This document shows positions 1,078-60,277 of a DNA stretch of 64,000 nucleotides, piece by piece. Made by a program: the position numbers and the translations under genes. The notes beneath the pieces are model-generated. The model was not told the origin of the DNA. It searched no databases and saw only the letters and a list, made by a program, of their open reading frames with translations. Source of the stretch: Armatimonadota bacterium. Lineage in GTDB: Bacteria > Armatimonadota > UBA5829 > DTLH01. The stretch is from contig JBBRAE010000006.1 in NCBI GenBank assembly GCA_038207085.1, forward strand, positions 1,818 to 65,817. Reading direction: 5' to 3'. The stretch's first letter is position 1. Every line of letters starts with the position of its first letter.

Positions 1078-1185
1078 CCGCCATCCTCCAAAATGTGATA
1101 GAATATCGTAGAAAAGTCGAGCCTGCGGCGATGGTTTACGATCTCGCGCGCGGGTTATATCTGATTGAAACAATAGATCGGCGGG

Positions 1186-1593: not shown

Positions 1594-1665
1594 GAGGCGG
1601 GCGCTACGGACCGAACGGAACGGCTTCGGCGCGCTGCGCCTGTCATAATTCTTCTTATTCTTGCG

Positions 1666-3933
1666 GTGGTGTTCCTCTACCCGGCGCTAAGGCCCGGCTA
1701 CGCGCTCCTACCGGCCCGGTACTTAAGTGCGATGAGCCCCTGGAACGCCTCCCACAGCGCAACCCAGCCGCAGTGGAACCCGCTGATGTGGGACGGGATC
1801 GCCCAGTTCTACCCCTGGAGGGTCCACCTGCACAGGTCGGTTGTCGATGAGGGGATGATCCCGCTTTGGAACCCCTACCAGTTCTGCGGGACCCCGTTTC
1901 TCGCAAATGCCCAGACCGCGCCGCTTTACCCGCTGAATATCTTGTTCATCCTTTTTGAGCCCGTGCGCGCCTTTGGCCTCTCGGCGATGATCCACCTGTT
2001 TCTTGCAGGCGCGTTCACCTTCCTGCTCGCCCGTGCACTTGGGGTAGGCCGCTTCGGGGCGACGGTGTCGGGGGTGACGTTCGCCTTCAGCGCGTTTATG
2101 GTGCTCTGGCTTGAGCTTCCGACGCTTGTAAACGTCGCGACGTGGCTTCCGCTGGTGCTTTATCTAATCCTTCGCGCGTGGGACAGGACCGGGATCGTTC
2201 ACGCGGTCTTCGCGGGCGCGGCTCTTGGGGTCGCGATCCTTGCGGGGCACTTCCAGATAGCCTCCTACGTTGCCTTTGCCGCGGCGAGTTGGTGGGTGTG
2301 GCTTGGAGTGTCAAGGGTGAGAGTCGACGGCGCGGAGTCAATCACGCGAGCGATAAAACTCGGACTCGTCTGTTTCGCGGTCGCATTCCTGGTCGCCGCT
2401 CCACAGGTGCTCCCCACGCTCGAACTCGCGGGGCTTTCCCACCGGGTGCGCGAGGCAACCGCCGCAGGCTACGCAAGCTATCTCAAGAACGCGATTCCCC
2501 TTCGGCATACGATGACGCTTTTCGTCCCGAACTTCTATGGAAACCCCTCCGCGCCCGGCGGCTACTTCGGCGGAAGCGCCGCAAACTTTATGGAGTACGG
2601 CATGTACGTCGGCATTATGCCGTTGCTCTTTGCGATTCTTGGCGCGGTTTTCGCCCTTCGCTGGCGCGCAGCCGGATATTTCCTGCTGCTTGCGGTCATC
2701 TCGTTCCTGCTCGCGGTGGGGACGCCGTTCAATCTCCCGTTCTACTACCTCGTGCCGGGGACAAGCTCGCTTGGCGGGCCTAACAGGGTGATTGTGCTCT
2801 TCTGTTTCTCCATTGCGATGCTTGCGGGCTACGGAGCGCACTGGTTCTCCCAACTCGCGCTTGAGGAGTACCGGGCGACGGGTCGGAAACAGGGCTGGCG
2901 CGCGCTTGCGATCGGCGGAGCGGTCTTTGCGATACTCTTCCTCGCCTGCCAGACGATCACCTCCGGCGGTCTGCAGTCGCTTGGGGTCGACCCCCGACAG
3001 ATCGTTTCCGCGGCGCTCCCTCAGTACGTGCTCTTTGGAGTGATGCTCCTGGGCTCGCTCGGAGTGATGACTATCTACACCGCCGGGCAGCTCCCCAAGG
3101 GGTTTTTCGCGTTTCTTGCGATCTCTGTGATCGTCGCCGATCTCTTCACCTTTGGCATGGGATTTAACCCGGTCTCGCGTGTGGAGCAAGTCTACCCCCG
3201 GACGGGTCTTACCGACTGGCTCGTGAGCAATGCCGGTGACGCGCGCGTGATGCCGATCAACCCGCGTTGGAGCCTTTTCGAGAACCCCGGCGCGCTGCTT
3301 CCTCCAAACGCCGCGACCGTCTTCGGGCTCTGCGACGTGCAGGGGTACGATTCGCTCTTTTACCGCAACTACAAGCAGTTTGTCGACCGCACGCTTGGGA
3401 CGGACTCAAGCCCGCGAGAGAACGGCAATATGCTCCTTATCCCCCGCTACACCCCCGATTGGCCGCAGGGAATGGCCGGTTTGGTGCTCTCCAGGGAGCC
3501 GCTTGGCGCTCGGGGGCTCGAACGGGTCGCGCGGACCGGCGATGTGCTCATCTACCGGCGAACGGCGTTTGGCCCATACCGAAAGACCTACCTAGTGCCC
3601 GCCGACAACGACCCCATCAAGCCCGTATACAGGTCGTGGGTGGCTGACCGCTCGACAAACAGCGTCGTGGTGGTCGCCGAGACCGATCGGCCCGCCCGTG
3701 TGGTATTGGCCGACGCGTTTTATCCCGGCTGGAAGGCTTACGTCGAGGGCGAGGAGCGCCCCGTAACGCCTGCGGATGGTGTGTTTCGCTCGGTTGCAGT
3801 CGAGCCTGGGACCCAGTCGGTCGTCTTCCGGTATGAGCCGGAGAGCTTCCAGATCGGGGTGTTTCTCGGGCTCATTGGCCTCGCGGTTATAGCTGGCGCC
3901 GGTGGGATGGCGTTAGCCGGGAGGCGTGCGTGA
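1666..3933 (+). CDS. YfhO-like polytopic membrane protein (putative GT-C type glycosyltransferase)
   Basis: 755 aa, more than 12 predicted TM helices. The N-terminal WNP(Y)QFCGTPFLANAQTAPLYPLNILF motif resembles the YfhO family. There is a C-terminal soluble domain. GTG start at 1666. The start is uncertain because the open frame continues upstream without an ATG. Confidence 0.6.
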   Translation: MVFLYPALRPGYALLPARYLSAMSPWNASHSATQPQWNPLMWDGIAQFYPWRVHLHRSVVDEGMIPLWNPYQFCGTPFLANAQTAPLYPLNILFILFEPVRAFGLSAMIHLFLAGAFTFLLARALGVGRFGATVSGVTFAFSAFMVLWLELPTLVNVATWLPLVLYLILRAWDRTGIVHAVFAGAALGVAILAGHFQIASYVAFAAASWWVWLGVSRVRVDGAESITRAIKLGLVCFAVAFLVAAPQVLPTLELAGLSHRVREATAAGYASYLKNAIPLRHTMTLFVPNFYGNPSAPGGYFGGSAANFMEYGMYVGIMPLLFAILGAVFALRWRAAGYFLLLAVISFLLAVGTPFNLPFYYLVPGTSSLGGPNRVIVLFCFSIAMLAGYGAHWFSQLALEEYRATGRKQGWRALAIGGAVFAILFLACQTITSGGLQSLGVDPRQIVSAALPQYVLFGVMLLGSLGVMTIYTAGQLPKGFFAFLAISVIVADLFTFGMGFNPVSRVEQVYPRTGLTDWLVSNAGDARVMPINPRWSLFENPGALLPPNAATVFGLCDVQGYDSLFYRNYKQFVDRTLGTDSSPRENGNMLLIPRYTPDWPQGMAGLVLSREPLGARGLERVARTGDVLIYRRTAFGPYRKTYLVPADNDPIKPVYRSWVADRSTNSVVVVAETDRPARVVLADAFYPGWKAYVEGEERPVTPADGVFRSVAVEPGTQSVVFRYEPESFQIGVFLGLIGLAVIAGAGGMALAGRRA

Positions 3934-9105: not shown

Positions 9106-10857
9106 ATGCGCACTATGCCTGGACTCACACAATCATCTTTATTCGACTATTATGAAGAACCGTGCTCCGCCGCGTCCAAGACCGTCTCGGATGCGGTTGA
9201 GGAACTTGCGTCCAACAGTGGCGCGGAAGCACGTGGAGCAATATTCACGCGTCGTGAAGTAGTTGATTTTATTCTCGATCTTGTTGGATACACGCCTGAC
9301 AGACCTCTCCACAGATTGTGTCTTCTGGAGCCCTCTTTTGGGGGTGGCGATTTCCTACTCGCGGTGATTGGCCGGCTGCTGGACGCCTGGCGACGGGAAT
9401 CTCATCAGTTAGATTCAGTCGTCGATAACTTGGGCGATGCGATAGTGGCTGTTGAGCTTCATCACGAGACATTTGCGCGCACTCGACAGGCTGTGATAGA
9501 GCAAATCACCCGGGAAGGAATAGAGTCACGATTAGCTGTAGAGTTGGCTGACCGTTGGCTTTCGCAGGGTGATTACTTGCTGCAGCGACTTGGCGAGAGG
9601 TTTGACTTCGTCGTCGGCAACCCTCCGTATGTGCGCCAAGAGATGATTCCTGCCCCACTCTTGGCCGAGTATAGAAGTCGCTATCAAACTATGTATGACA
9701 GGGCTGACATATACGTGGCCTTTATGGAGCGTTCGCTGCTGGTTCTCAAGAATGGTGGCAGTTTGGGCTTCATTTGTGCTGACCGATGGACGAAGAACCG
9801 CTATGGTGGACCCTTGCGCAACCTTGTCTCAGACGGCTTCAGCTTGGACGTGTTTGTTGATATGGTGAACACCCCCGCATTTCACAGCGAAGTGAGCGCA
9901 TATCCCGCCATTACCATCATCAGCAGACAGAAACAGGGTCCGACCCGTGTTGCTCATCGTCCTACTATTGATCGTACCCAACTGTATGCTCTTGCCAAGA
10001 AGCTGCGCGCGGAGCGACTGACACCAGATGATGAGACTTTGCGTGAACTCGCTGGTGTTGTCAAAGGCTCTGAGCCGTGGCTGCTGGATTCGTCCGACCA
10101 AATCTCGGTTCTTCGTCGTCTTGAGGAGCAGTTCCCGTCTCTCGAACGGGCTGGGTGCAAGGTGGGCATTGGTGTGGCTACAGGAGCGGACGACGCCTTT
10201 ATCTCGGATTACGAGACCCTGGACGTGGAGCCGGATCGGAAACTGCCTTTGGTTACAACCCGCGATATTCAGTCCGGCGAAGTTGTATGGCGTGGTCTTG
10301 GCGTCGTGAACCCATTTGCCGAGGACGGAGGTCTTGTCGACCTTAGCGACTATCCGAGACTTGCGCGGTATTTGGAGACACGAAAGGGCGTGATAGCCGC
10401 CCGCCACTGCGCACAAAAGTCTCCGACCCACTGGTATCGCACTATCGACAGGATAACACCGGCTCTCGCGGCACAACCCAAACTACTCGTGCCAGATATC
10501 AAAGGCGAGGCGCATATAGTCTATGAGGAGGGGCGGTTTTATCCGCACCATAACCTTTACTACATTGTGTCTGCGACTTGGAACTTGCGCGCCCTGCAGG
10601 CGGTTCTGCTTTCAAACGTCGCGCGGCTGTTTGTGGCGAACTATTCGACAAGGATGCGTGGAGGTTACCTGCGATTTCAAGCGCAATACTTGCGCCGCAT
10701 CCGAATCCCTTACTGGCAGGATGTGGCAGATGAGTTGCGCTGCGAGTTGATTGAAGCCGCCGAGTCGCGGAACTCGCTGGCATGTGACAGGGCGGTATTC
10801 AGACTTTATGGATTGAGCGAAGATGAGCGCGCAGTATTGGGAGGCAATGGAGAGTAG
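9106..10857 (+). CDS. Type II restriction-modification N6-adenine DNA methyltransferase (gamma-class, Eco57I/TaqI-like N6_Mtase family)
   Basis: 583 aa. The N-terminal [16 protein letters not shown] (AdoMet region) and the catalytic [10 protein letters not shown] (motif IV NPPY) are followed by a long C-terminal target-recognition region. GC content is lower than in the flanking DNA. Confidence 0.85.
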
Positions 10858-31210: not shown

Positions 31211-31397
31211 TGTCTAAGAGCATGTCTGAGAAGTGTAGTGGCCGTCTGCTGTGACGGCCATCGGCTCCGAAGGAGCCGGAAAACGGTGGAATTTCGTGCC
31301 AATTGAGCATTGCTACGAGTAGGGCAGCGCCTACGGCGCTGATGGCCGGCACGGCGACCGGCCCCTACAATTGGGATTTCTCAGACACGCTCTAAGG
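31211..31397 (+). repeat. Copy 1 of a 187-nt highly structured repeat element with about 20-bp imperfect terminal inverted repeats (MITE-like element or structured ncRNA). Copy 2 is at 53278-53464.
   Basis: About 92 percent identical to 53278-53464. The ends GTCTAAGAGCATGTCTGAGAA and TTCTCAGACACGCTCTAAG are inverted. Internal hairpins are TGGCCGTC-loop-GACGGCCA, CGGCTCC-GAA-GGAGCCG, and CAGCGCC-UACG-GGCGCTG (UACG tetraloop). Loop nucleotides differ between copies while stems are conserved. Confidence 0.6.
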
Positions 31398-31670
31398 GGT
31401 CAGTGTCTGTAGACCGGTGTCGGCGGCGGGGACGATCACGGGGGTGCCGCTTGCGTCGGTCTGGCTGTAGCCGGTTATAGCGGCGAACGTTCCGTCTGCC
31501 GGGGTCTGCCCGAGGAACGTTGTCGCAAGCTTGCACCAGGCTGGGACCGGCACAGGGTTGCCGTTTGCGTCCAGCTGGGTTCCAGGGACAGCCGATCCGT
31601 CGTCGATCCAGATTCCGCCGGAGTCGACGTGCACTTTCCCTGCGACCTTGACGAGTGAGCTAACCTGCAT
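31392..31670 (-). CDS. Hypothetical 92-aa ORF, possibly the C-terminal remnant of a truncated gene, bracketed by two repeat elements
   Basis: The ORF stop abuts the 187-nt element and its start abuts the double-hairpin repeat. Codon usage is GC-rich, but there are no homology cues and no clear RBS. Confidence 0.25.
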   Translation of the reverse strand: MQVSSLVKVAGKVHVDSGGIWIDDGSAVPGTQLDANGNPVPVPAWCKLATTFLGQTPADGTFAAITGYSQTDASGTPVIVPAADTGLQTLTP

Positions 31671-31736
31671 TATTCACGAGGAGCGTGAATAATGCTTTGA
31701 TAGCGAGAGCTTTATTCGCTTCACGAATAAAGCGGG
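31667..31736 (+). repeat. Copy A of a 70-nt double AT-rich hairpin element (3 copies in the window)
   Basis: GCATTATTCACG-AGGAG-CGTGAATAATGC (12-bp stem), then a 14-nt spacer, then GCTTTATTCG-CTTCA-CGAATAAAGC (10-bp stem). Also at 45221-45290 (inverted) and 60068-60137. Confidence 0.6.
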
Positions 31737-31765
31737 CTAACGTGTGCGCGGCCCAGAGTACGTGC

Positions 31766-31796
31766 AAAAAGGCCGGAGAGATTACACTCTCCGGCC
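31766..31796 (-). terminator. Rho-independent terminator downstream of pilT
   Basis: On the minus strand, GGCCGGAGAG-UGUAAU-CUCUCCGGCC is followed by UUUUU, 80 nt after the pilT stop. Confidence 0.5.
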
Positions 31797-31828
31797 TTCG
31801 GTTGTATCTATCAAATTGTGACGTTTGC

Positions 31829-31878
31829 AAAAGCTAAAAGCTAAAAGCTAACAGTTAATGGCTAATAGCTAACAGCTC
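31829..31878 (+). repeat. Tandem AGCTAAN heptad tract containing the 18-mer GCTAATAGCTAACAGCTC shared with 36240-36257
   Basis: AAAGCTAAAAGCTAAAAGCTAACAGTTAATGGCTAATAGCTAACAGCTC lies immediately 3' of the pilT stop. Confidence 0.6.
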
Positions 31879-32942
31879 TAATGCGTCGGTCTTCTCATCA
31901 TCTGCTTGAGCTCGGTGAGGTTTCCTGCGCTGGCCATGGCGTCTTCTTCGGTGATCATTCCGCTCTTGAGGAACTTCGCGAGGCACTGGTTCATGGTCTG
32001 CATTCCCCAGAAGTTGCCCTCGGCGATCGCCTGATAAAGCTGGCTTGATCGGCCTTCTTCTATCAGTTTGCTGATCGTCGGGTTGCCGATCATAATCTCC
32101 ACCGCGGCGATTCTGCCATCGGTGTCGCACCTCGCGATCAGTTTCTGGGAGATGGTCGCCTTGAGCGTTTTTGCAAGCCGAAGACAGATCTGGGGCTTGT
32201 CGTGCGGCGGGAACATGTTGATGATACGCTCCATAGTCTCCGGGGCGCTTGTTGTGTGGACCGTCGAGAAAACGAGGTGCCCAGTTTCTGATGCCGCGAG
32301 CGCTACGTTCATCGTCTCCACGTCGCGCATTTCACCGATCAGAATGACGTCCGGGCTCTGTCGCACAACGTACTTGAGCGACTCTGTGAACGAGTCGGTG
32401 TCTATCCCGATTTCCCTTTGGCTCACGATCGAGCGCTTGTCCGGGTGGACGAACTCGATCGGGTCCTCGACGGTGATGATATTGCAGCGGCGGTTTTCGT
32501 TGATCATGTCGATCATAGCCGCAAGGGTGGTGGACTTGCCGCATCCGGTAGGTCCGGTCACAAGGATAAGTCCCTGCCGCAGCTTGCACATGTCGGTTAT
32601 GACCTGGGGCATCCCAAGCTGCTGGAGGCTGTAAATCTTGAGCGGGATAATACGAAGCACCATCCCTACTGTGCCGCGCTGCTGGTAGACGTTGGCTCGG
32701 AACCTGGCGAGCTCTTTTATCTCGAAGGCAAGGTCGAGTTCACGTCTGCGCTCGAAGCGCCCGATCTGCTCGTGGGCCATGATCCCATAGGCCATGTCGC
32801 GGATCTCGGTTCCTGCGAGCGCAGGCATATCGAGGGTGACAATCTTGCCGTCGATCCGAAACGTCGGCGGTGTGTTATCCTTGAGGAAGATATCTGAAGC
32901 CCGTTTTTCAACGGCGAGTGCGCATAGTTCCTTCAGTTCCAT
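31878..32942 (-). CDS. pilT: Type IV pilus twitching-motility ATPase PilT
   Basis: GLILVTGPTGCGKSTTLAAMI Walker A, VILIGEMRD Walker B, and conserved His/Asp boxes. 354 aa. Confidence 0.9.
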   Translation of the reverse strand: MELKELCALAVEKRASDIFLKDNTPPTFRIDGKIVTLDMPALAGTEIRDMAYGIMAHEQIGRFERRRELDLAFEIKELARFRANVYQQRGTVGMVLRIIPLKIYSLQQLGMPQVITDMCKLRQGLILVTGPTGCGKSTTLAAMIDMINENRRCNIITVEDPIEFVHPDKRSIVSQREIGIDTDSFTESLKYVVRQSPDVILIGEMRDVETMNVALAASETGHLVFSTVHTTSAPETMERIINMFPPHDKPQICLRLAKTLKATISQKLIARCDTDGRIAAVEIMIGNPTISKLIEEGRSSQLYQAIAEGNFWGMQTMNQCLAKFLKSGMITEEDAMASAGNLTELKQMMRRPTH

Positions 32943-32949
32943 ATCGGGG

Positions 32950-33660
32950 TTATACTGCTCCTTTCGACTTGCCTGCGGCGCGGCTTGATATTACGTATAC
33001 CACGACACCGGCGGCGAGCGCTAAAAGCAACGCAAGCCAGATAATCTTTCCACTTCCGCCAGTGGTATTTCCTGCGGTTTTTGCGCCCGGTCCTTCTTTT
33101 GGCTGGCTGACGATCAGCGGCAGCCCGAGTTTGTCGAAGTCCCTGTCTTTGACTGTCACTGCGTAGGAATATGTTCGATTGGTCGTGTCAAAATCTATAT
33201 CGACGTATTTGTTTTGGTAGTCACGGATCGACCTGAACGGCAGCTTGCCCTGAAGCGCGTAGTTGATCTGGATCTTATCGAACCTCTTTAGTGCGACGAT
33301 AAAGGGCTCCACCTGGATAATCCCCGTAGCCCACTCGACGGCTCCACTGTCCACCTGGAAGTCGATGCTGGTCATCTTGGGGCCGCCGGGAGCGCTCGCC
33401 TCGGTTGAGACCGAGACATTGCTGACCTTCCACCCCGCAAGGCGTGCCACTTCCTTCAGGTCGGCGATCGCGTTGGCCCTGGGGACTTCGGAGTTATAGA
33501 TGATGCTTGCCATGTCCTGGGGCATGCTCCCGGATATGATAAGCGCCATCACGTCTGGGGTATCCCCGGTCTGCATCTGTGCGCCTGCGAAAGACGCTGC
33601 GAGGGTGAGTATCCCGAGAGTAAGAACCACAAAAAGTGTAGAACTGCGTTTCAAGATCAA
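32950..33660 (-). CDS. Hypothetical exported protein with C-terminal membrane anchor, upstream of and co-oriented with pilT
   Basis: N-terminal signal/TM (LFVVLTLGILTLAASFAGA). Gly-rich linker. C-terminal TM IIWLALLLALAAGVVVYVI. Confidence 0.5.
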   Translation of the reverse strand: MILKRSSTLFVVLTLGILTLAASFAGAQMQTGDTPDVMALIISGSMPQDMASIIYNSEVPRANAIADLKEVARLAGWKVSNVSVSTEASAPGGPKMTSIDFQVDSGAVEWATGIIQVEPFIVALKRFDKIQINYALQGKLPFRSIRDYQNKYVDIDFDTTNRTYSYAVTVKDRDFDKLGLPLIVSQPKEGPGAKTAGNTTGGSGKIIWLALLLALAAGVVVYVISSRAAGKSKGAV

Positions 33661-34047
33661 CAGGTTATCCTCGATCTATCGTCATGCCGGGTCACCGGCT
33701 GTATCAAGAAAGAGTCTACACCAGAGCCAGCTCCGCGTCAAGGACGCGTTGTTCGGCGGGTAATTGTAGGAATTGTTGGCAGCGGTCAATCTTGATTTGG
33801 AGTGCGGCTTGCGAGAGCCGCTTTCACAAATCTTCCGGCTGGCGATAATATGGCGCTTGCGCGCCTTGCTGTCGCCCGAGAACAAAGCGGCGATTGCTCC
33901 CCGCACTCCACATAAGGGCCGTTTGTCGCCGACAATATTTACATACACCCTTGTTCGGCCAAGGCGCACATTTCTTGCTAATGCTGCAGAGTTCATGCGA
34001 AAATAGAGCCGCGCGTCCAAATGCAAAACGCGCACGGGAGACAACAG

Positions 34048-36224: not shown

Positions 36225-36257
36225 AACTGCAAGCTAACAGCTAATAGCTAACAGCTC
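36225..36257 (+). repeat. Heptad tract GCTCAAC-TGCAAGC-TAACAGC-TAATAGC-TAACAGC-TC containing the 18-mer shared with 31861-31878, 13 nt upstream of the msrA RBS
   Basis: GCTAATAGCTAACAGCTC at 36240-36257 is identical to 31861-31878. Confidence 0.6.
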
Positions 36258-36275
36258 AAACCAGGAGGACAAACA

Positions 36276-38384: not shown

Positions 38385-39599
38385 ATGGAAAGGGCTGCTG
38401 TAATGAACGCACTGAGGCTTGCGGAGGTCGACTCGAAGATCATCTGCGAAGAGGACATGGGCGGGTACCGCCGCGTCACAGGTGAGTTCTGGACTGCGCG
38501 CCAGCGCCAGATGCACAGCATCCACTACGCCGTAAGCTACCGTGCTTCGTTCAAGCCGGAATTGCCCTGCTACTTCATCGACCGCTACTGCTCCGACTCC
38601 GAGCGCGACATCGTCTTTGACCCGTTCGGCGGACGCGGGACGACCATTTTGCAGGCCAATATCGGCGGCTACCGCGGCATCTCAAACGACGTGAACCCGC
38701 TTTCCGAGCGCATCTCCCGGCCAAAGACCCTCCCAGTTACAATCGAAGAAATGGGCGCGGCGCTTGAGCAGATCGACCTGTCAGTCGAAGTGGACGTGTC
38801 GGATTATGAGGCGTTTGCGCCTTTCTATCACATAGATACGTACCGTGAGATACTCGCACTGAGGCAATATCTTCTGGACAACCGAACCGAGGCGGACTGC
38901 TTTATAGAGATGATCGCCCTTTCGCGTCTGCATGGGCACAGTGGAGGCTTTTTCTCGGTATACTCGTTCCCCCAGATATCGGTGCCGTCTGCGTCGCAGG
39001 CGAGGATCAACGAGCAGCGCAACCAGACTCCCAATTATCGTCCAATCAAGCCCCGAATCTTGAAAAAAGCCAAGAGCGTCCTAAGAGATTTTAACCCGTC
39101 CGAGCTTGCCGAGCTTCGAAGTGTCGCAGACCACAACCGATTCACCTGCCACGACACGCGCAAGCTTTCGGGCATCGGCGACGGCGAGGTCGCCCTGATC
39201 GTCACCTCTCCGCCGTTTCTCAACAAGGCCGACTACATTCAGGACAACTGGCTTGAGTTCTGGTTCCTGGGTATCGACCCCACTCCACTGCGCGAGCAGG
39301 TCGTCCAGACCGATAACCTCGACACTTGGACCCAGTTTATGACGGGAAGTATGCAGGAGATGCTTCGGGTTCTGCGCGAGGGCGGCGTCGCGGTGGTCGA
39401 GGTAGGGGACATAAAATACGGCAAAAAAGTAGTGAACCTTGATGAAACGATAGTGGAAATCGCCCAGGAGATCGGCTTCGGCGTTGAAGAGGTGTTGATC
39501 AACTCCCAGCAGTTCACCAAGCTTGCGAACTGCTTCAACGTAGACAACATGACCAAAGGCACCAACACAAACCGCCTGGCAGTGCTAAGAAAAATCTAA
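38385..39599 (+). CDS. DNA methyltransferase (N4-cytosine or N6-adenine; motif I before TRD before motif IV) with no nuclease partner in the window
   Basis: Motif I VFDPFGGRGTT and motif IV LIVTSPPFLN (SPPF). Confidence 0.8.
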   Translation: MERAAVMNALRLAEVDSKIICEEDMGGYRRVTGEFWTARQRQMHSIHYAVSYRASFKPELPCYFIDRYCSDSERDIVFDPFGGRGTTILQANIGGYRGISNDVNPLSERISRPKTLPVTIEEMGAALEQIDLSVEVDVSDYEAFAPFYHIDTYREILALRQYLLDNRTEADCFIEMIALSRLHGHSGGFFSVYSFPQISVPSASQARINEQRNQTPNYRPIKPRILKKAKSVLRDFNPSELAELRSVADHNRFTCHDTRKLSGIGDGEVALIVTSPPFLNKADYIQDNWLEFWFLGIDPTPLREQVVQTDNLDTWTQFMTGSMQEMLRVLREGGVAVVEVGDIKYGKKVVNLDETIVEIAQEIGFGVEEVLINSQQFTKLANCFNVDNMTKGTNTNRLAVLRKI

Positions 39600-45190: not shown

Positions 45191-45220
45191 CAGTGTGCGG
45201 GCGGATGTCGACTGGCCTAT

Positions 45221-45290
45221 CCCGCTTTATTCGTGAAGCGAATAAAGCTTTCGTTAACAGAGCATTATTCACGCTACTCGTGAATAATGC
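45221..45290 (-). repeat. Copy B (inverted orientation) of the 70-nt double AT-rich hairpin element, between convergent gene ends
   Basis: GCTTTATTCG-TGAAG-CGAATAAAGC, then GCATTATTCACG-CTACT-CGTGAATAATGC. Confidence 0.6.
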
Positions 45291-45293
45291 AGG

Positions 45294-46862
45294 CTATTCC
45301 TCTGTGGGGACTGCTTGGAATAACCCCATAGGTTCGTCGCGGAATATTCGATCATCCATCAGCTTCAAGTTGTCTGATACGATGGGTTTGAAACCCATTT
45401 GGGCGAGGCAATCGCGCTCCAGGTCGATCCCTGGAGCTATCTCGGTGAGCACAATACCTTCGTCCGTCATCTCAAATACGGCGCGCTCTGTAACGTATAG
45501 CACCTTGTGCCCGCGCTCTCTGGCGTAGGCTCCGTTAAAGGTCAGATGCTCCACGGCAGAGACAAACTTTGGATGGGCGCCTTCGCTGAGTATTTTGATC
45601 TTCCCGTTGCCTATCTCGGTCTTCAGGCCGCTTACGGCGAATGTGCCGCAAAAGACAACTTCCTTGGCGTTCTGGGTGATGTTGATGAACCCGCCGGCGC
45701 CCGCCAGGCGTGAGTTGAACTTGCTCACGTTCACGTTGCCGTTCTGGTCGACCTGGGCCATCCCAAGAAACGCTTTGTCGAGTCCGCCGCCGTCGTAAAA
45801 GTCGAATATTGCGGGCTGGTCAACTATCGCTTCGGGATTGACTGTCGCTCCAAAGCTCAGTCCCGATGCCGGAACCCCACCGATCGCTCCTGCTTCGACC
45901 GTCAGGATCATCCGGTCGCGGATATCCTCTTCATCGGTCACTCTGGCTATCCCCTCCGGGATACCTATACCGAGGTTGACCACCGATTTGTGGCCGATCT
46001 CCATAGCAGCTCTGCGGCAGATGACTTTGCGCTCGTCAAGTGGCATCTTCTCCAGCACATCATCACAGTGACCCTGGTGCTTGCAGTAAGCGGGGTTGTA
46101 CACCTCGGCGTAGGTCTGGTGGTGGTTATCCGGATGTGCTACGACTATTGCATCCACCATCATTCCCGGAATCTTCACAAGCCAGGGGCTGGTGTTGATC
46201 TTGTTGATGATCTGCGAGACCTGGACGATGACTATTCCCCCGGAGTTTCTGGCTGCCTGCGCCATAGAAAGCATCTCAAACGTGCCGATCTCTTTCTCAA
46301 GGGTAATGTTGCCCATTGCGTCGGCGGTGGTGCCTCGCAGGATCGCGACATTGATAGGAAAAGCCTTATAAAACAGCCACTCGCGCCCGCCAATGTGCAT
46401 AAGCTCAACCACGTCTTCCGTTGACATGCTGTTTAGCCTGCCGCCATCGTGCCTGGGGTCGACAAATGTGTGGAGCCCAACGTGAGATATGGTTCCGGGT
46501 TTCCCCGCGGCGATGTCGCGATACATATGGGAGATCACACCAAGGGGAAGGTTGTACCCCTCGATTTTGTTCTCCAGAACTAGTTGGCCGAGCTTGGGCA
46601 TCAGATTCCAGTGCCCACCGATTATCCGTCTGATAAGCCCTTCGTGAGCGAGATGGTTCAGCCCCTTGCTTTTGCCGTCACCCTGGCCTGCGGTGCAGAC
46701 GAGCGTGAGCCCCTTCGGGTTACCTGTCTTCAGGAACCGTTTTTCGAGGTGTTGAGTCAACTCCTCGGGGTGGCCGCTGCCTGCAAACCCGCCGCTTGCG
46801 ATGGTATCGCCGTCTTTGATCAACCTGACAGCTTCGTCAGCCGTCATAAGCTTGTGCTTCAA
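45294..46862 (-). CDS. Acetyl-CoA hydrolase/transferase family protein (CoA-transferase)
   Basis: 522 aa. The N- and C-terminal halves each have a CoA-transferase-like fold (DGDTIASGGFAGSGHPEEL, GGQVDF-like region LGMAQVDQNGNVNVS). Confidence 0.75.
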   Translation of the reverse strand: MKHKLMTADEAVRLIKDGDTIASGGFAGSGHPEELTQHLEKRFLKTGNPKGLTLVCTAGQGDGKSKGLNHLAHEGLIRRIIGGHWNLMPKLGQLVLENKIEGYNLPLGVISHMYRDIAAGKPGTISHVGLHTFVDPRHDGGRLNSMSTEDVVELMHIGGREWLFYKAFPINVAILRGTTADAMGNITLEKEIGTFEMLSMAQAARNSGGIVIVQVSQIINKINTSPWLVKIPGMMVDAIVVAHPDNHHQTYAEVYNPAYCKHQGHCDDVLEKMPLDERKVICRRAAMEIGHKSVVNLGIGIPEGIARVTDEEDIRDRMILTVEAGAIGGVPASGLSFGATVNPEAIVDQPAIFDFYDGGGLDKAFLGMAQVDQNGNVNVSKFNSRLAGAGGFINITQNAKEVVFCGTFAVSGLKTEIGNGKIKILSEGAHPKFVSAVEHLTFNGAYARERGHKVLYVTERAVFEMTDEGIVLTEIAPGIDLERDCLAQMGFKPIVSDNLKLMDDRIFRDEPMGLFQAVPTEE

Positions 46863-47089: not shown

Positions 47090-49126
47090 TCAGCTGACCA
47101 GCTCAGCGGCTCCCCATAGCAGCACATGCCGATCCTTGGCGAAATGCGCCGCATCTGCCGTAAACCCGCCGGGACAAACCAGCAGGCCCTGCACGATACG
47201 ACTCCCCCGAGGCAGCACGTCGCTCAGTTCTCTGACCGCCCGGACGTCCGCGGGTGAAGACCAGTTCCTGCACTGCACGAAGAGCGTAATCTCTGAGCCC
47301 AGCTCATCTCTCATACGCGCGATCAGGTCGACTCCTCCACCGTGTGAAGGCGGTGACATCTCCACCTCATAGCCCAGGCGTTCAAGACGGTATTTTGCGA
47401 GCATATCGAGCTCCGGGCCGGACAACTCCGAGATTGAGACATCCCTGGCGCTGGTGCGTTGACGTCTGGGCGGCTCCAGGTTGAAGATACCGAAGAGCTC
47501 TTTCTCCGTGAGACTCCCTCCGAGGTCCATGCACACGTCATCCACATATTCGGTGAAGAGGCTCTTCTTGCTCCGCAGTATCTGATGGATGCGCTCCTCT
47601 ATAGTGTCTTCGCAAATGTACTTGTAAACGCTGACGCCCCGAGTCTGCCCGATCCGGTGGGAGCGGTCTTCGGCCTGCGACTCGCTCGCCGGGTTCCACC
47701 AACGGTCGAAGTGGAAAACGTAGGATGCGCTCTGAAGATTCAGCCCGACTCCCCCGGCTCGAAGCGACAGGATCATGACACCGGCTTCGGGATTGTCTCG
47801 GAAGGCTCTCGTGGCTTCTTCGCGCTGGCCGATGCTCATGTCTCCTGTATAAAGCACCGGCCCGAACCTCGCAAGCGCACGCCCGAGGCGATAAACTCCG
47901 TAGGTCTCGCTCGTAAACTGCGAGAAGATCAGCGCCTTATGCCCCTCCTCCCGAAGCGCGCTGAGTCTTCTGACCATATCCTCCAGCTTGGATGAGCGAC
48001 CCGATTCGGTGGCGAAATTGCATATCTGCTTCAGCCTGGTGATAAGAGCGAGCACATCTGTTACGGTGGCGTCCTGTCCCTTATCGCAAAGCAGAGCCGT
48101 ACCCGTTCCCAGCAGACCGCCATACTCCTCTCGCTGCTCTTTCGTAAGCGGTACCGCGAGTACGGTTGTGAGCTTAGGTGGCAGGTCCGAAAGAACCTCC
48201 GATTTCTTCCTTCTGAGCTGAATCTCCGCAAGCCTGGACCGGATATCTTCATCTTTGATGGGGCCGGGGATGAGGAACGACATTATCGAGCGAAGGTCCT
48301 CGACGCTGTTCTCCAGTGGGGTCCCCGTGAGCGCCCACCGGCGCTCAGAGGTGATGCTGCACACCGCTCCGCTGACCGCGGACTCCTTGTTCTTAATCCG
48401 CTGCGCTTCGTCCAGACAGACCAGGTCCCATCCAACTTGCGATGCTCGAATGCGGCCTATGTCCGAGCGCAGCGTCTCATAGCTGACTATCTTGACGTGG
48501 ACGCGTGAGTCCCATTTCCACACCCTTTGCGCGGCGGACCCCGTGATCTCGACGGTTCTAAGCTCCGGCGCCCACTTTGCCATCTCCGCCCGCCAATTCC
48601 TGATGACCCCGGCAGGAGCGACGATGAGGGTGGTTTCGATCTCTCTTCTCCTGGTGAGCAGCCGGATGGCCGCAGCTGCCTGAACGGTCTTGCCGAGGCC
48701 CATGTCGTCCGCTAAAAGGATATGAGGGCGCTCGATGAGCATCCTGATCCCGGTCCGCTGGAATTCCATCAATTCCGAGGGCCATTCTATCGGGCCCGAT
48801 GCCGCGAGGCATATCGAGAGCGGCGGCTGAAGTAGTGCGGCGAGCCTTTTGTTCAGAGACGGCATCTCCGGCGCTGGATCGGACCTGTTGCGGCTGATCG
48901 CGCCGCCTTCCCTGTTTTGGGGCCAAAAAAACGGTGGGACAGCTGTCGATTCATCCCCCTGCCATGGCGCGAGGCTGAGAGAAACCGAGCCACTGTCCGT
49001 GGTTTTCGTTCTGCGTTCGAGCGTCTGCAAAGCTCCTACTTCAGGAACGCTTCGCATGGCCGTGTGCGTGCCGGAGGACGTTGGGAAGGCCGCAGTTGTG
49101 TTTATTAAATAGCTGACGGCACTCAT
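47090..49126 (-). CDS. SNF2-family helicase/translocase fused to a C-terminal Mrr-like (PD-(D/E)XK restriction endonuclease-like) domain
   Basis: SNF2 motifs LADDMGLGKTVQ (I), LVCLDEAQRIKN (II), ALTGTPLEN (III), and GGVGLNLQSASYVFHFDRWWNPASESQAEDRSHRIGQ (V-VI). The C-terminal 130 aa carry GGVDLIAR...LFVQCRNW, which is Mrr_cat-like. Confidence 0.85.
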   Translation of the reverse strand: MSAVSYLINTTAAFPTSSGTHTAMRSVPEVGALQTLERRTKTTDSGSVSLSLAPWQGDESTAVPPFFWPQNREGGAISRNRSDPAPEMPSLNKRLAALLQPPLSICLAASGPIEWPSELMEFQRTGIRMLIERPHILLADDMGLGKTVQAAAAIRLLTRRREIETTLIVAPAGVIRNWRAEMAKWAPELRTVEITGSAAQRVWKWDSRVHVKIVSYETLRSDIGRIRASQVGWDLVCLDEAQRIKNKESAVSGAVCSITSERRWALTGTPLENSVEDLRSIMSFLIPGPIKDEDIRSRLAEIQLRRKKSEVLSDLPPKLTTVLAVPLTKEQREEYGGLLGTGTALLCDKGQDATVTDVLALITRLKQICNFATESGRSSKLEDMVRRLSALREEGHKALIFSQFTSETYGVYRLGRALARFGPVLYTGDMSIGQREEATRAFRDNPEAGVMILSLRAGGVGLNLQSASYVFHFDRWWNPASESQAEDRSHRIGQTRGVSVYKYICEDTIEERIHQILRSKKSLFTEYVDDVCMDLGGSLTEKELFGIFNLEPPRRQRTSARDVSISELSGPELDMLAKYRLERLGYEVEMSPPSHGGGVDLIARMRDELGSEITLFVQCRNWSSPADVRAVRELSDVLPRGSRIVQGLLVCPGGFTADAAHFAKDRHVLLWGAAELVS

Positions 49127-49653
49127 GGCTCGAAAAGATCGGGGTAGACTTCCCGCAGCCCGATCTCGGCCCTCTCGAACGGTTCGAGCAGCAGCCCACG
49201 AACGGCGATTATGTTAATCAGACGCCTCGCCGGGGAGTTTTCGTCCTGTTCTATAGTCCATTGGAGCAAAATATCGCCGTCTAGTTCGGAATCTTCGGGA
49301 GGCGGTTCCTGGGATATAAGAACGATCGGGGTCTCGACCTGTATCTGCTCCGAAAACAGCCTTGAATCGACTTCATCTGCCCGGCACACGATGACAAGCG
49401 GCGCCACCGGGCACGCATCGAATATGGCCGCTGCCAGAGACCTCACGCATGTGAGAAAAAAGTCCTCGGGACGCCAAAGGGTAGGGGATGGCGCCTGCAC
49501 TCTGGCATACGTGAACTCCACCGGCTCCCCGGCGGCATCGATCATAAGCATCGCCCCGAGCCAGAAATCGTCGGCCACATGCGGCAGGAACCTTAGGAAA
49601 CCCGCCGCACCTGGAGGGTCGTCGGTTATTCCGTGGAATGGGATTGGGGACAT
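49123..49653 (-). CDS. Hypothetical protein (176 aa), operon partner of the SNF2-nuclease gene
   Basis: Start overlaps the upstream gene stop and stop overlaps the downstream gene start (ATGA-type coupling). No recognisable motif. Confidence 0.5.
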   Translation of the reverse strand: MSPIPFHGITDDPPGAAGFLRFLPHVADDFWLGAMLMIDAAGEPVEFTYARVQAPSPTLWRPEDFFLTCVRSLAAAIFDACPVAPLVIVCRADEVDSRLFSEQIQVETPIVLISQEPPPEDSELDGDILLQWTIEQDENSPARRLINIIAVRGLLLEPFERAEIGLREVYPDLFEP

Positions 49654-49659
49654 AATCGG

Positions 49660-50910
49660 CTAACCCTCCCCAGTTTCCTCCCGCGAAAGCTCCACATCCT
49701 CCGAGTAATCCGGCGTCATCTCCTCTACGACTACCTCGGGCCTATATTCCGGGTAGAGCAGCATCATATCCCACTGGGTTATCCACGACTTGACGTGCTC
49801 TCGTATTGACCTCGAAGCCAGCAGCTCTCCGCCCTGCGCGGGAGGAGCGTCCCACTCGAATGCGCGGGAGTGAAGAAGGCGGACCCGTTCCTTCAGTTCC
49901 TTAAACTCATCAAGCTTCACCGACCTGAGTGATTTTGCGCGCCTCAGCACCTTCATTCCGGCTTCGGCGTCGCGCGCGAGCTCAATGTCGCCGGCGCGGC
50001 CCCGATCCCGCAGCCATTCCGGAATCTCCGAGTCTCTCTTCTGCTCCTCGGCCGTGGCCCAAAAGTCATCGGTGATCGAGAATACGGGGAGCAGTCCCGA
50101 AATCTTGATATCCTTCACGACCCCTGCGAGCCGGGCCACCTGGGCATACGACTTGGCGCGTTGCAGCTTGCTGTAGCGAAGCATCAGCTCCACTTCATCG
50201 ATCAGCACTACCCAACCGGTGTATCCCGCAGCGTGAAAGAGCCTTGGCAGAAACCTCCACAGATGGACACCGAGTTCCCTCTGCGGCATGGTCGTGACCC
50301 TGTAGTAGTTATGGAGCTGAATCTCCTTCAGCGCTCTCCTGATGTCGGACACCTTCATCGGGTATCCCGACCACTCCCAGGCTGCCTGATCGAGAAACTC
50401 CTCGGCCCCAGCGGGGTGGTCTTCGATGATCTTGAGCAGCGGCGCGAACCTGCCCGCGAGTGCAGGCTGTTCGACCGCCCATTTGAAAAGCAGCGAGAAT
50501 CGTTCGCCGGTGAGTCTCTCCGAGAAGAGCACTTCAGGCACCGCTCGTCCGGCCGTTTCCACAAGCGCTGCCGTCTCAGCCGCGGCACGGACCAGCTTCA
50601 GTCCGTCGAAAAGTGGTGTCTCCTTGCTTATGACCACGTGGCTGCACACGCACCGCTGCTCCATGGCCTCGTGTCTCAGATACTCGAGCAGATGCGACTT
50701 GCCAGCGCCGAACCCGCCGGAGATGACCATCGCCCGGGGCGAGGTATCGTCTTTCTGTGCCGATTCCTCCAGTTCCCAGAGCATCTCCGTGAATTTCTGG
50801 GTGATGTCCCCCTGGAAAACCGGGAGTTGGCGGACCGCGTCGCGGTTGGGAACCCCCGCACGCAGCGCTTCGATCGCGCGTCTTGCCATTAGTCTGCCGT
50901 CGTTATTCAT
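49660..50910 (-). CDS. P-loop NTPase (Walker A/B), tentatively BrxD/DUF2791-like ATPase
   Basis: Walker A AMVISGGFGAGKSHLLEYL and Walker B GWVVLIDEVE. 416 aa. Confidence 0.6.
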   Translation of the reverse strand: MNNDGRLMARRAIEALRAGVPNRDAVRQLPVFQGDITQKFTEMLWELEESAQKDDTSPRAMVISGGFGAGKSHLLEYLRHEAMEQRCVCSHVVISKETPLFDGLKLVRAAAETAALVETAGRAVPEVLFSERLTGERFSLLFKWAVEQPALAGRFAPLLKIIEDHPAGAEEFLDQAAWEWSGYPMKVSDIRRALKEIQLHNYYRVTTMPQRELGVHLWRFLPRLFHAAGYTGWVVLIDEVELMLRYSKLQRAKSYAQVARLAGVVKDIKISGLLPVFSITDDFWATAEEQKRDSEIPEWLRDRGRAGDIELARDAEAGMKVLRRAKSLRSVKLDEFKELKERVRLLHSRAFEWDAPPAQGGELLASRSIREHVKSWITQWDMMLLYPEYRPEVVVEEMTPDYSEDVELSREETGEG

Positions 50911-51904
50911 CGCTCGCCCCGCTTTCTCCTACCCGGACCATGGCCGCCAGAAGGTCCTGGCGGGAGACGTCGTGCACCTCGCTGAACAGGCGGCTCTGCA
51001 GAGCGTAGTATCCGAATATGGACCTCTTTTCATCCGTCTCGATCGCATCCGGCGCCGCCGCACAGATGAGGCAGTGTGTGATCTCGTCGGTCTCATCTAT
51101 GAACTGCCTCAGCACTTCATAGGCATCGAGGAGAGAACTGCGGCTGTAGTGGAGCGTGTTCAGGTCGTCATCCATCCCCCTTGGACGCACGGCGAGAAGC
51201 GCCGACAGGTCGATCCCGACGACCAGCCCCTTGCCGATCGATCTTGCGAGCCAGTGTGCGAACGCTCTCAGTAGATCACGGGCGTTCTGCCGGTTAATCT
51301 TGGAGTAGATGCGAAGGTCTCGAAGCGCGGAAGCGCCCACCTTTTCACCGCGGAGCCAAGAGCTGATCGTCTCTGTATCGCTCGGGCTGACGTTACGAGG
51401 AAAGAACTGCGCTTTTCGAAGCTGAGAGATGGCAGTGCGAAACTCCTTACACATATCGCGGTCCTGAACGATCTCGTCCGTTGTTGCGCGGCGAAGCTCC
51501 CTCAGCAGTTCTTCGGGGATGAGGCCGTTAGCCGATGCGATGGTTTCGGTGTCGGAAAGCTCGGTGTCCTCGGGCATCAGATAGCCACGTTCACGGAGAA
51601 ACCTGATTCCGTCCAGAATCATGAGAGCATTCCAGTCAATCTGCCTGCTGATGGCGAAGAATACCTGGTCGATTCTGTCCACCCGGGTCTCAGCGGCGGA
51701 TACCTGGACGTATAGGCAGTTCCGCTCCTCGGCCTTGCGGCGCAGATGCTCAAGCGCCACTTTCGATCCGCCAGCGTCTCCGGCGAGCACCAGCTTGAAC
51801 GCGGATCCGCCTTCCATTATAAAGTTCTCAAGATAATAGCTGTCGATTACCCGAAGCCAGTCATCTAAAGTCGCAGTCAAATCATCCACCTCACTCTGAA
51901 GCAT
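50903..51904 (-). CDS. Paralog of the downstream P-loop ATPase with a degenerate Walker A
   Basis: FKLVLAGDAGGSKVALEHL aligns with VISGGFGAGKSHLLEYL of the next gene but lacks the GK[ST] core. Start set to the internal ATG (MLQSEVDD) at 51904 to avoid a 175-nt overlap with the upstream gene. Confidence 0.5.
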   Translation of the reverse strand: MLQSEVDDLTATLDDWLRVIDSYYLENFIMEGGSAFKLVLAGDAGGSKVALEHLRRKAEERNCLYVQVSAAETRVDRIDQVFFAISRQIDWNALMILDGIRFLRERGYLMPEDTELSDTETIASANGLIPEELLRELRRATTDEIVQDRDMCKEFRTAISQLRKAQFFPRNVSPSDTETISSWLRGEKVGASALRDLRIYSKINRQNARDLLRAFAHWLARSIGKGLVVGIDLSALLAVRPRGMDDDLNTLHYSRSSLLDAYEVLRQFIDETDEITHCLICAAAPDAIETDEKRSIFGYYALQSRLFSEVHDVSRQDLLAAMVRVGESGASDE

Positions 51905-52673
51905 TGAACCGGATCGTGCAGTAGAGCCGCCGCTGTCCGTCCCTGGTGATGACGGACAGCATCTTTCTGTCATCCCTGGTGCTGCTGCTTGCCTCAAGGA
52001 CCGCGGTATGGCCCCTGACCTCCAGGCTCTCGCCGGAGGCGTCGAGCAGATACATGTCTCGAACAAACTCCTGCTCGGAATAATCGCTGCCTGGCGCGGC
52101 GGCCATTATCTCATAAATATCGCGCAGGTAGAGTGACTTGCCCGCCCAGGGTTCGGACTTTTTGATGTTGCTGGAGGCGAGTGCCTTGTACACCTTGAAA
52201 AGGGAGGCGAGAAACCGTGCGGCAGGAAATCTGTTTGGTCGGTTTTGGACAGCGCTCAAAATGGCGGCTAGAGTGCGTGGCCGGAGGTGTATCTCGGTCT
52301 TCTTGTCTATCTTGACCGCTCTGCCGGCGGTGTCGAGCCTGAGGATAGCCGGGTACACGTAGAGCACGTCCCCATGCTCGTGATAGTCCACTCCCGACTC
52401 AGCGAGCGCAGCCTTCAACTCGTCCTGATACTCCTCGCATGCGAAATAGTCTGCGATGCCGCAGTCCTCCCAGCTTGAGCTAAACTGCTGTAGTCCTTCA
52501 AGGGCCTTCACCAGTTCCTGCTCCGCGTCTGCGAGCTTCCGCGACAGGGTCTTTATCTCTCCACCGTCCAGCATCTTGAGGCATGCCGAAGCCGCCGTTG
52601 CGCCTTTCCTGGCCGCGCCGACCACTGGCTTCAGAGCCTCCACGCTGCTGGCGATCGTCTCTTCAAATCTCAT
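51891..52673 (-). CDS. Hypothetical protein (260 aa), first gene of the five-gene operon
   Basis: AT-rich putative promoter region directly upstream (52674-52760). No recognisable motif. Confidence 0.5.
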   Translation of the reverse strand: MRFEETIASSVEALKPVVGAARKGATAASACLKMLDGGEIKTLSRKLADAEQELVKALEGLQQFSSSWEDCGIADYFACEEYQDELKAALAESGVDYHEHGDVLYVYPAILRLDTAGRAVKIDKKTEIHLRPRTLAAILSAVQNRPNRFPAARFLASLFKVYKALASSNIKKSEPWAGKSLYLRDIYEIMAAAPGSDYSEQEFVRDMYLLDASGESLEVRGHTAVLEASSSTRDDRKMLSVITRDGQRRLYCTIRFNASE

Positions 52674-53277: not shown

Positions 53278-53464
53278 AGTCTAAGAGCGTGTCTAAGAAG
53301 TGTAGTGGCCGTCCGTCGTGACGGCCATCGGCTCCGAAGGAGCCGGAAAACGGTGGAATTACGTGCCAATTGAGCATTGATACGAGTAGGGCAGCGCCTA
53401 CGGCGCTGATGGCCGGCACAGCGACCCGCCACTACAATCGGGATTTCTCAGACACGCTCTAAGC
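53278..53464 (+). repeat. Copy 2 of the 187-nt structured terminal-inverted-repeat element
   Basis: About 92 percent identical to 31211-31397 over the full length. Differences are concentrated in hairpin loops. Confidence 0.6.
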
Positions 53465-56966: not shown

Positions 56967-57133
56967 GATTCCTCCTGCGTTTGGTTGTTTGCTATTACAA
57001 GCTCGTCCGTATTATACCAACCAAGCGCAATTTCTAACCCACATTCATCACGTTTGTTGTGGACAATGCGTAATTTGCAGGAGATTTATTGGCCTGACAA
57101 GCGAAGAGGCCGCACGTGGCGGCCTCTGTCTGA

Positions 57134-58888: not shown

Positions 58889-59872
58889 TTATTCTTCCAC
58901 ACTGCCGTATTCGGCGCGAAATAGCGTTTGCAATTGGTCGTCTTTTCGTTCGATTACGGCACGCCTGATCTTGCGCAGGGAATCGTCGGTCGCATATACC
59001 CGAAGCGCCGAAAGCGCTTCCTTGGCTGTGTTTGATTCTGCATTGCGGAGCACATCAAGCAAGAATTGGAACGCTTCATCGGTGCGAACGAGCGCGATCG
59101 GCAGGATCAGGCCTCTGCGGATGGTGGGGGAGGGGTAGCTGTCCCAACGCTCGCGGAGCAGGTCGTAGGCGCGGGCGACTCGAGAGTTGCCGATGGCAAG
59201 CGCCGCCGATTGGGAGATCGCCGGGGCAGGGGAGTCGAGAAACCGCACGAGAAAGTCGATAGAGCGATCCGGGGCCATCGTGATAAGCCCATCCAGACAC
59301 TCCCTGACTACCTCGGGGTCGCTGTCGCCTGCGTGCGCTTTCAGCCGGAGGAGATGCTCACTTTCGGGTCGGCCGAGGTATGCGGTCGCCTTTGCCGCAG
59401 CTGCGCGAACGCTCGAGTCGGGGTCTACCAAGAGGTCCGTAAGTATATACAGCGCATCGGTGTGCTCGGTCCGGGCGAGGCCGAAGGCGCAGCCGATTCT
59501 GACCTGCACGGCAGTGTCGACCGGGCCGCCGTACGCGGGCTCTATCTGAACATATTTTGCTCCTGCGACCAACACCTCATCTCCCATATACTCCATCTCG
59601 TTTAGAGCGTTTACTATGGAGATTTTGGCGTTGCAGAGCTTGTCTTTCTTGCTGCCGTTGGTCATGAGACTCTCAAAGGCTGAGATCATATCCGGGACGA
59701 GATCGTGCAGCTTTCGGCGTCCGGCGATGTCGGCTGCCGCGGAGACGAGCAGGCTGTTTGCGCCATCAATGGCGAGCTTCAGTGTGGCGATGGTCTGGGC
59801 TCCTACGGGGCCGGTCCCAAGGCTCTGAAGTGCGTTGTAGGCGGCTTCGAAACTCGACGATGTCTTTCTCAT
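58889..59872 (-). CDS. HEAT-repeat domain protein
   Basis: Repeated about 30-aa units with ...VR.AAA.ALG.IG... periodicity. Confidence 0.6.
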   Translation of the reverse strand: MRKTSSSFEAAYNALQSLGTGPVGAQTIATLKLAIDGANSLLVSAAADIAGRRKLHDLVPDMISAFESLMTNGSKKDKLCNAKISIVNALNEMEYMGDEVLVAGAKYVQIEPAYGGPVDTAVQVRIGCAFGLARTEHTDALYILTDLLVDPDSSVRAAAAKATAYLGRPESEHLLRLKAHAGDSDPEVVRECLDGLITMAPDRSIDFLVRFLDSPAPAISQSAALAIGNSRVARAYDLLRERWDSYPSPTIRRGLILPIALVRTDEAFQFLLDVLRNAESNTAKEALSALRVYATDDSLRKIRRAVIERKDDQLQTLFRAEYGSVEE

Positions 59873-60067
59873 TGCGGCAATATCTCCTCTGCAGCCAGTC
59901 CGTGGCAGGTCCCGATGAATGATAGGCTGAGCTTTAGCCAGCTGTCAAGTGGAGATTCCCTGATAGCCGGTCATAATCGGCTTTGGAGTGCGGCGTGCGC
60001 GCGCCGCTTTCACAGACATTCCGACTGACGACAATATGGCGCTCACACACTGCACTCCACATAGCCC

Positions 60068-60137
60068 GCATTATTCACGAGAAGCGTGAATGATGCTCTC
60101 TTAGCAAGAGCTTTATTCGCTTCACGAATAAAGCGGG
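60068..60137 (+). repeat. Copy C of the 70-nt double AT-rich hairpin element
   Basis: GCATTATTCACG-AGAAG-CGTGAATGATGC (one G-U pair), then GCTTTATTCG-CTTCA-CGAATAAAGC. Confidence 0.6.
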
Positions 60138-60277
60138 ATAGAGTCTGCCCAGCACCCAGTGGAGGGTTGCCTGTCGCAATGTGGAGGATTATGTGTCGGC
60201 AGTCGGGCATTGTGGGGTGGTGGCTGGATGAGCTACTTGCCGCTCATCCAGCCATTTGATACGATTTCTTTCTTTCA

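Follow-up and report, generated by a model that had tools for sequence, protein, structure and literature searches.

A 73-bp, two-palindrome repeat of Armatimonadota, very probably a MITE with a YTAR-like target

Introduction

Described bacterial MITEs include the Correia elements of Neisseria, RUP of Streptococcus pneumoniae and the RU/ERIC-type elements of enterobacteria. Like the repeat reported here, they are short and non-coding, bounded by terminal inverted repeats (TIRs) and a TA-centred target-site duplication (TSD), and present in tens to hundreds of copies that lie mostly between genes or at gene ends. They likewise form hairpins in transcripts, show insertion polymorphism and—as we propose for the present family—depend on a transposase supplied in trans. 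With a length of roughly 100–170 bp they exceed our element, which measures 73 bp, and they duplicate TA, compared with four base pairs of the form YTAR here. The two palindromic half-units and the Armatimonadota host further set the present element apart, and we found nothing in its sequence that links it to known bacterial MITEs.

Other systems offer partial parallels. The duplications documented for IS5 are 4 bp long and of the form YTAR (PMC5009759); IS5 thus shares with our element both the length of the duplication and essentially the same C/T-T-A-A/G consensus. The target is looser here, extending to ATAG, GTAG, CTAT and CTAC. The ends of IS5 start with GG, whereas the termini of our element start with CC. 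REPs and REPINs resemble it in having palindromic units of ~35 nt that are often paired, extragenic and highly repeated; they depend, however, on a Y1 HUH enzyme and make no TSD, in contrast to the 4-bp duplication and empty sites described below. Tourist-like MITEs, eukaryotic elements of the PIF/Harbinger type that rely on IS5-related transposases, are similarly non-autonomous, carry TIRs, use a TA-centred target (TWA) and are often nested and near genes; being longer and flanked by a 3-bp duplication, they provide a mechanistic analogy only.

Here, we analysed a 64-kb stretch of DNA from an Armatimonadota bacterium (the window), a member of a phylum that is little studied and known almost only from MAGs. 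In a full-text literature search, MITEs and 'Armatimonadetes' were not mentioned together in any paper. We argue that the repeats in question are very probably copies of a MITE, that is, a 73-bp non-coding DNA transposon whose transposase acts in trans. The family is previously undescribed; as a kind of selfish repeat, it is ordinary.

Results

Three copies and a relic of a two-hairpin unit

The original prediction held that the window contains three copies of a 70-nt element composed of two hairpins, and the repeat itself proved real: a motif search returned each hairpin three times, at the predicted positions, against no chance match to either motif in dinucleotide-preserving shuffles. Hairpin 2, GCTTTATTCG-CTTCA-CGAATAAAGC, has a 10-bp stem and occurred three times with 0 mismatches. 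Hairpin 1, GCATTATTCACG-N5-CGTGAATAATGC, has a 12-bp stem, occurred three times with at most one mismatch and, as described, varies in its loop (AGGAG, AGTAG and AGAAG in the three copies). The one stem substitution, A to G in copy C, yields a G.T wobble and is indeed compatible with G-U pairing. Two dimensions needed correcting. The spacer between the hairpins, put at 14–16 nt, measures 13 nt, and alignment of the three copies with their flanks extended the conserved unit to 73 bp, CCYGCATTATTCACG...CGAATAAAGCGGG, with CCY/GGG lengthening both ends as terminal inverted repeats. The left end (CCYGCATTATTC...) and the right end (...GAATAAAGCGGG) are mutually inverted: the left terminus reads CCYGCATTATTC(A)CG, compared with CCCGCTTTATTCG for the reverse complement of the right terminus, giving TIRs of 13–15 bp (CCYGCWTTATTCRYG).

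The three copies are identical to one another at 66–68 of the 73 positions (90–93%), contain no ORF, have a G+C content of 42–47% (window, 58%) and fold as single strands at −21 to −24 kcal/mol (z = −6 to −7). Each is bracketed by a 4-nt direct repeat. A search with nhmmer, using an HMM of the family, recovered a degenerate fourth copy (E 3e-6), which reads CTAA and then CCCACATTCATCACG..., with erosion of both hairpins and an indistinct right end. With three copies and one relic in 64 kb, the element is multicopy, as expected of a MITE. The features are as follows:

31660–31740, + strand: copy A; left TSD CTAA at 31660–31663, element at 31664–31736, right TSD CTAA at 31737–31740; hairpin 1 at 31667–31695, hairpin 2 at 31709–31733
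45217–45297, − strand: copy B, inverted; element at 45221–45293, TSD ATAG (CTAT on the + strand) at 45217–45220 and 45294–45297
60061–60141, + strand: copy C; TSD ATAG at 60061–60064, element at 60065–60137, TSD ATAG at 60138–60141
57034–57105, + strand: degenerate fourth copy (relic); element at about 57038–57105

The family beyond the window

Are these the only copies? The original prediction had named this outcome as part of its own refutation; it can be dismissed, as well over 100 copies exist elsewhere. A scan of one genome per GTDB species for the exact two-hairpin pattern found the same element in the Armatimonadota MAGs JBDKSP and JBDKUN and in one unclassified MAG, CAZPYA; three single hairpins in Prevotella were discarded as chance matches. 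A pattern scan of JGI metagenomes yielded at least 120 loci, and among the matches listed, most derived from three metagenomes, on contigs of up to 225 kb. Applying nhmmer to ~1 Mb of retrieved loci gave 123 full-length copies, 107 of them unique, and the element is exactly 73 bp long in 89 of the latter. These 107 further copies stem mainly from Armatimonadota MAGs and the three JGI metagenomes, and the loci that carry them are otherwise dissimilar to the window, indicating that the family spans several species. In the Ga0118677 loci we counted 88 TIR pairs in 537 kb, corresponding to ~1 per 16 kb after removal of index matches and to a similar density in the window; by extrapolation rather than by count, a genome might hold a few hundred copies.

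The CoA-transferase encoded in the window is closest to named Armatimonadetes/Armatimonadota proteins, at 76% and 70% identity. No copy was present in ~100 kb from the closest relatives, which we selected by this protein, and CoA-transferase neighbourhoods at 76–81% identity in relatives were not syntenic and contained no copies. The distribution of the family is therefore patchy. Neither a plasmid blastn search nor a scan of viral contigs returned a match to the element.

A 4-bp duplication at a YTAR-like target

In 61 of the 107 unique copies, the same four bases stand to the left and to the right of the element, compared with an expectation of 13.5 and a maximum of 26 in 10,000 permutations. 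These matched flanks differ from copy to copy: CTAA is the most frequent (22), followed by CTAG (9), TTAG (8), CTAT (7) and ATAG (5), with CTAC (4), GTAG (2), CGAG (2) and others being rarer, so that at least 10 different tetranucleotides are represented. Their consensus is YTAR (C/T-TA-A/G). CTAA, CTAG, TTAG and TTAA together make up 40 of the 61 exact duplications and one-base variants the remainder; ATAG, GTAG, CTAT and CTAC thus deviate from strict YTAR. Since the flanks co-vary between left and right and yet differ between copies, they are a 4-bp TSD at a YTAR-like target and not a fixed motif of the element.

Empty sites, nested insertions and assembly breaks

An assembled Logan contig (L133, run SRR19962012) carries a CoA-transferase gene whose product matches that of the window at 100% identity. 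Beyond the stop codon it continues as GAGGAATAG|GCCAGTCGACATCC, which equals the window minus exactly 77 nt (the 73-bp element and one ATAG) and hence represents the orthologous empty allele for copy B, with GAGGAATAG|GCCAGTCG as its junction. The empty allele keeps the same TAG stop, and the CoA-transferase protein is unchanged by the insertion. A paralogous empty site exists as well: locus L061 reads CTAT-(73 bp)-CTAT, compared with a single CGAT in the corresponding repeats of L035 and L130. Furthermore, several copies are nested inside a sister 73-bp element, inserted at its central TTAG with duplication of TTAG, and dozens of sister copies run uninterrupted across the nested-insertion junction. 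The filled and empty alleles for the same organism suggest that the family is live.

Two other Logan contigs of run SRR19962012 stop inside hairpin 2, L138 at copy A and L012 at copy C. This is expected of a repeat in k-mer assembly, and the family accordingly explains breaks in short-read assemblies of these organisms.

Gene 3′ ends and stop codons

All copies had been placed between genes and at gene 3′ ends, one of them between convergent genes. The latter is copy B, flanked by a GH2-family gene (+) and the CoA-transferase gene (−), and the general placement broadly holds, copies A and C lying downstream of minus-strand genes. Across the family, 71 of the 107 copies have the end of a long ORF within 60 nt. 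In 22 copies, the duplicated TAR doubles as the stop codon of an ORF that spans at least 100 codons, and a histogram of ORF-end offsets shows 23 events at offset 0 against no more than seven at any other offset. Copy B provides an example within the window:

45294–45296, − strand: TAG stop of the CoA-transferase gene (45294–46862, −), part of the TSD of copy B

YTAR includes TAA or TAG on both strands, and this overlap between target and stop codons would account for the element's place at gene 3′ ends. As the duplication restores the stop codon, such insertions are harmless; a YTAR target, in other words, lets a transposon occupy stop codons without damage. Target preference together with purifying selection would probably suffice to explain the position of the copies.

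Two palindromic units and the decay of their stems

Unit A (35 nt), a central YTAR (4 nt) and unit B (34 nt) make up the 73-mer, and both units are palindromic. Plausibly, the element arose as a dimer when one palindromic unit inserted into the YTAR that had been re-created next to another, after which the dimer was propagated. Single-hairpin half-elements and one-hairpin forms of 26–34 bp do occur in the retrieved loci; given that their flanks match inconsistently, we do not claim that half-units move independently.

AT-rich perfect stems had been taken to imply constraint. We tallied the stem pairs over the 107 copies:

Unchanged: 2112
Changed on one side, still paired: 41
Compensated on both sides: 41
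Broken: 143

Broken pairs thus outnumber compensated ones, and recent insertion of a mobile element explains the perfect stems better than constraint does. The compensated changes divide subfamilies (CACG/CGTG in the window, CATG/CATG elsewhere), whereas the broken pairs are scattered. This scatter and the relic at 57038 indicate that individual copies decay and that active masters keep the palindromes. In the masters of the subfamilies, the hairpins are retained through compensatory changes—a requirement absent from a plain TIR-binding model—and hairpin formation may therefore matter.

Discussion

How would such an element move? The repeat is short, non-coding and multicopy, and it has TIRs, a TSD and empty sites, the features by which a MITE is recognised. 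We propose that a transposase encoded elsewhere and supplied in trans would bind the element ends and make a 4-bp staggered cut at a YTAR-like target, into which the element would insert with duplication of the 4 bp. Insertions into stop codons and short intergenic regions would be harmless and hence accumulate at gene 3′ ends. The hairpins would follow from the palindromic architecture of the ends in active masters, with the copies decaying afterwards.

As to the mobilising enzyme, the 4-bp YTAR duplications made by IS5 point by analogy to an IS5-like DDE transposase, a candidate that we regard with as much doubt as confidence. Neither an IS5-family transposase nor a full-length IS with CCCGCWTTATTC ends was found in the scanned ORFs of the window and in ~1 Mb of loci. 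Pfam detected no transposase among the 30 window ORFs scanned (of 55 with a length of 110 aa or more), an all-vs-all blastp comparison of the locus ORFs revealed no multicopy transposase, and neither the window nor ~1 Mb of related loci yielded a longer or autonomous element with matching TIRs; metagenome contigs usually lack multicopy ISs. Several candidate partners were inspected and rejected. TIR pairs with matching flanks at a distance of 200–6000 bp, collected from all loci, proved to enclose housekeeping genes that lie between two separate copies, and 'solo' TIRs, considered as partner ends, were mostly half-elements or truncated copies. An IS21-like and an IS4-like element also failed as partners, their ends being unrelated. 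The former (L032, ~1135–3745) is an IS21-family element with IstA/IstB and multiple terminal repeats, and the latter (L077, 5915–7290) is 1376 bp long with 48-bp TIRs; the ends of both are unlike those of the 73-bp element.

A different origin would make the repeat a REP or REPIN, that is, two inverted extragenic palindromes moved as single-stranded DNA by a RAYT (Y1 HUH). The original prediction had suggested REP-like elements among other possibilities, and as a description of a dispersed, palindromic, extragenic repeat family this stands; the element is short and multicopy, each of its two hairpins is preceded by a tetranucleotide that contains TAG, and a weak Y1_Tnp gene occurs in a related organism. 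What fails is the REP/REPIN mechanism, since the copies carry TSDs: their flanks are direct and not inverted repeats, they co-vary within a copy and differ between copies, and a single tetranucleotide remains at empty sites. The check for RAYT genes, run with Pfam on 30 of the 55 window ORFs, found none, and the loci with the Y1_Tnp gene carry no copy of the element. We therefore consider a REP/REPIN origin extremely improbable. On one strand, each end has a sub-terminal hairpin beside a tetranucleotide, an arrangement that also recalls IS608-type ends, and one could envisage an IS200/IS605-type PATE that inserts as single-stranded DNA 3′ of a specific tetranucleotide without duplicating it. 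Such an element would, however, have a constant right tetranucleotide, whereas here it changes with the left flank and comes in at least 10 kinds; moreover, our element is symmetric, with true TIRs, unlike the ends of IS200/IS605. This leaves a PATE with next to no chance of being correct.

Could the hairpins instead have been selected at gene ends, as bidirectional terminators, a structured small RNA or a 3′-UTR motif? The hairpins are strong (z of about −7), most copies lie close to the end of a long ORF, and one sits between convergent genes. Yet neither hairpin is followed by a T/U tail on either strand, the stems are A+T-rich, and a terminator and promoter scan around copy A (31400–32000) called 0 terminator-like sites, which speaks against the bidirectional terminators of the original prediction. 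Its suggestion of a small RNA family fares no better: Rfam gave no match on the element, either at the gathering threshold or at E ≤ 1, and only two tRNAs reach the gathering score in the window. Copy A, moreover, adjoins a separate structure that was found by eye:

31768–31800, − strand: hairpin and T run, GGCCGGAGAG-N7-CTCTCCGGCC-TTTTT, 31 nt from copy A

Judged by eye, this looks like the intrinsic terminator of the pilT-like gene, albeit one that the automated scan did not flag, and its hairpin has a weak Rfam match to an sRNA 3′-terminator region. Also contrary to selection at gene ends, the site of copy B carries the element in the window but not in a contig from the same organism, copies are nested in other repeats, occur in either orientation and decay, and a target that contains stop codons already explains the position at 3′ ends. 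Taken together, we hold a selected terminator, small RNA or 3′-UTR motif to be very improbable, whereas a secondary, co-opted effect of the inserted element on mRNA 3′ ends is possible.

The MITE reading itself, in its ordinary form, treats the hairpins as a by-product. It is rather unlikely, though conceivable, that there is more to them—either through a transposase type new to 4-bp YTAR duplications that recognises the hairpins, or through co-option of the hairpin pairs in mRNA. If the former applied, the palindromic hairpins may be the real recognition feature and the ~34-nt single-hairpin unit the minimal mobile module. If the latter, hairpin pairs adjacent to stop codons may serve these Armatimonadota as mRNA 3′-end stabilisers or terminators.

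No new biological principle is opened by a family of this kind. Rather, if the MITE reading is right, it offers a clean and apparently active example from Armatimonadota, notable for its very small size, its two-palindrome build, the insertions that share a stop codon and the signs of current activity. There is also a practical message: annotators should be wary of labelling such hairpins as terminators or sRNAs.

Neighbouring repeats and genes

Several further features of the window and of the retrieved loci deserve mention. The organism with the weak Y1_Tnp match (IS200/RAYT-like in Pfam; a 177-aa gene at L134/L135 1–506) has a CoA-transferase 79% identical to that of the window, and the 11 kb fetched from it contained no copy of the 73-bp element. 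The sister 73-bp subfamily, CCTGCATTATTCATA...CATGAATAATCCGGG, is present in the JGI loci L024, L035, L049, L067 and many others (e.g. at L035 1408–1487), and a palindromic repeat of ~166 nt lies at L035 1482–1649 and L130 8842–9012; both are targets of nested insertions by the 73-bp element.

Within the window, a 185-nt repeat occurs at 31212–31396 and 53279–53463. Its two copies are 94% identical, have 15-nt inverted ends (GAGCRTGTCTGAGAA / TTCTCAGACACGCTC) and are flanked on both sides by TAA, and it gives the impression of another MITE-like family, unrelated to the 73-bp element; none of the fetched loci contained a copy. Between this repeat and copy A extends a 92-aa ORF (31392–31670, −) without a Pfam match, whose first ATG lies inside hairpin 1 of copy A and whose stop codon coincides with the boundary to the 185-nt repeat. 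This could be a remnant of a gene, or else a small gene enclosed by a mobile element on either side. On the other side of copy A, short tandem-like repeats of the type GCTAA(A/C)A (31810–31881, and again at 36232–36260) are rich in CTAA, the preferred target of the 73-bp element; those at 31810–31881 lie between the stop codon of the pilT-like gene and the hairpin with T run at 31768–31800.

A 62-nt repeat at 33796–33857 and 59982–60043 (85% identical), the second copy of which is directly beside copy C, is located upstream of two minus-strand genes, one at 32950–33660 and the other a HEAT-repeat gene at 58889–59872, and may be a shared promoter or leader. Lastly, the window encodes defence-type genes at 47090–52066, 9106–10857 and 38385–39599: two BrxC/BrxD-like ATPases, an SNF2 helicase with an Mrr_cat nuclease domain, an Eco57I-like methylase and an N6_N4 DNA methylase, which together may form a BREX-like or restriction island.
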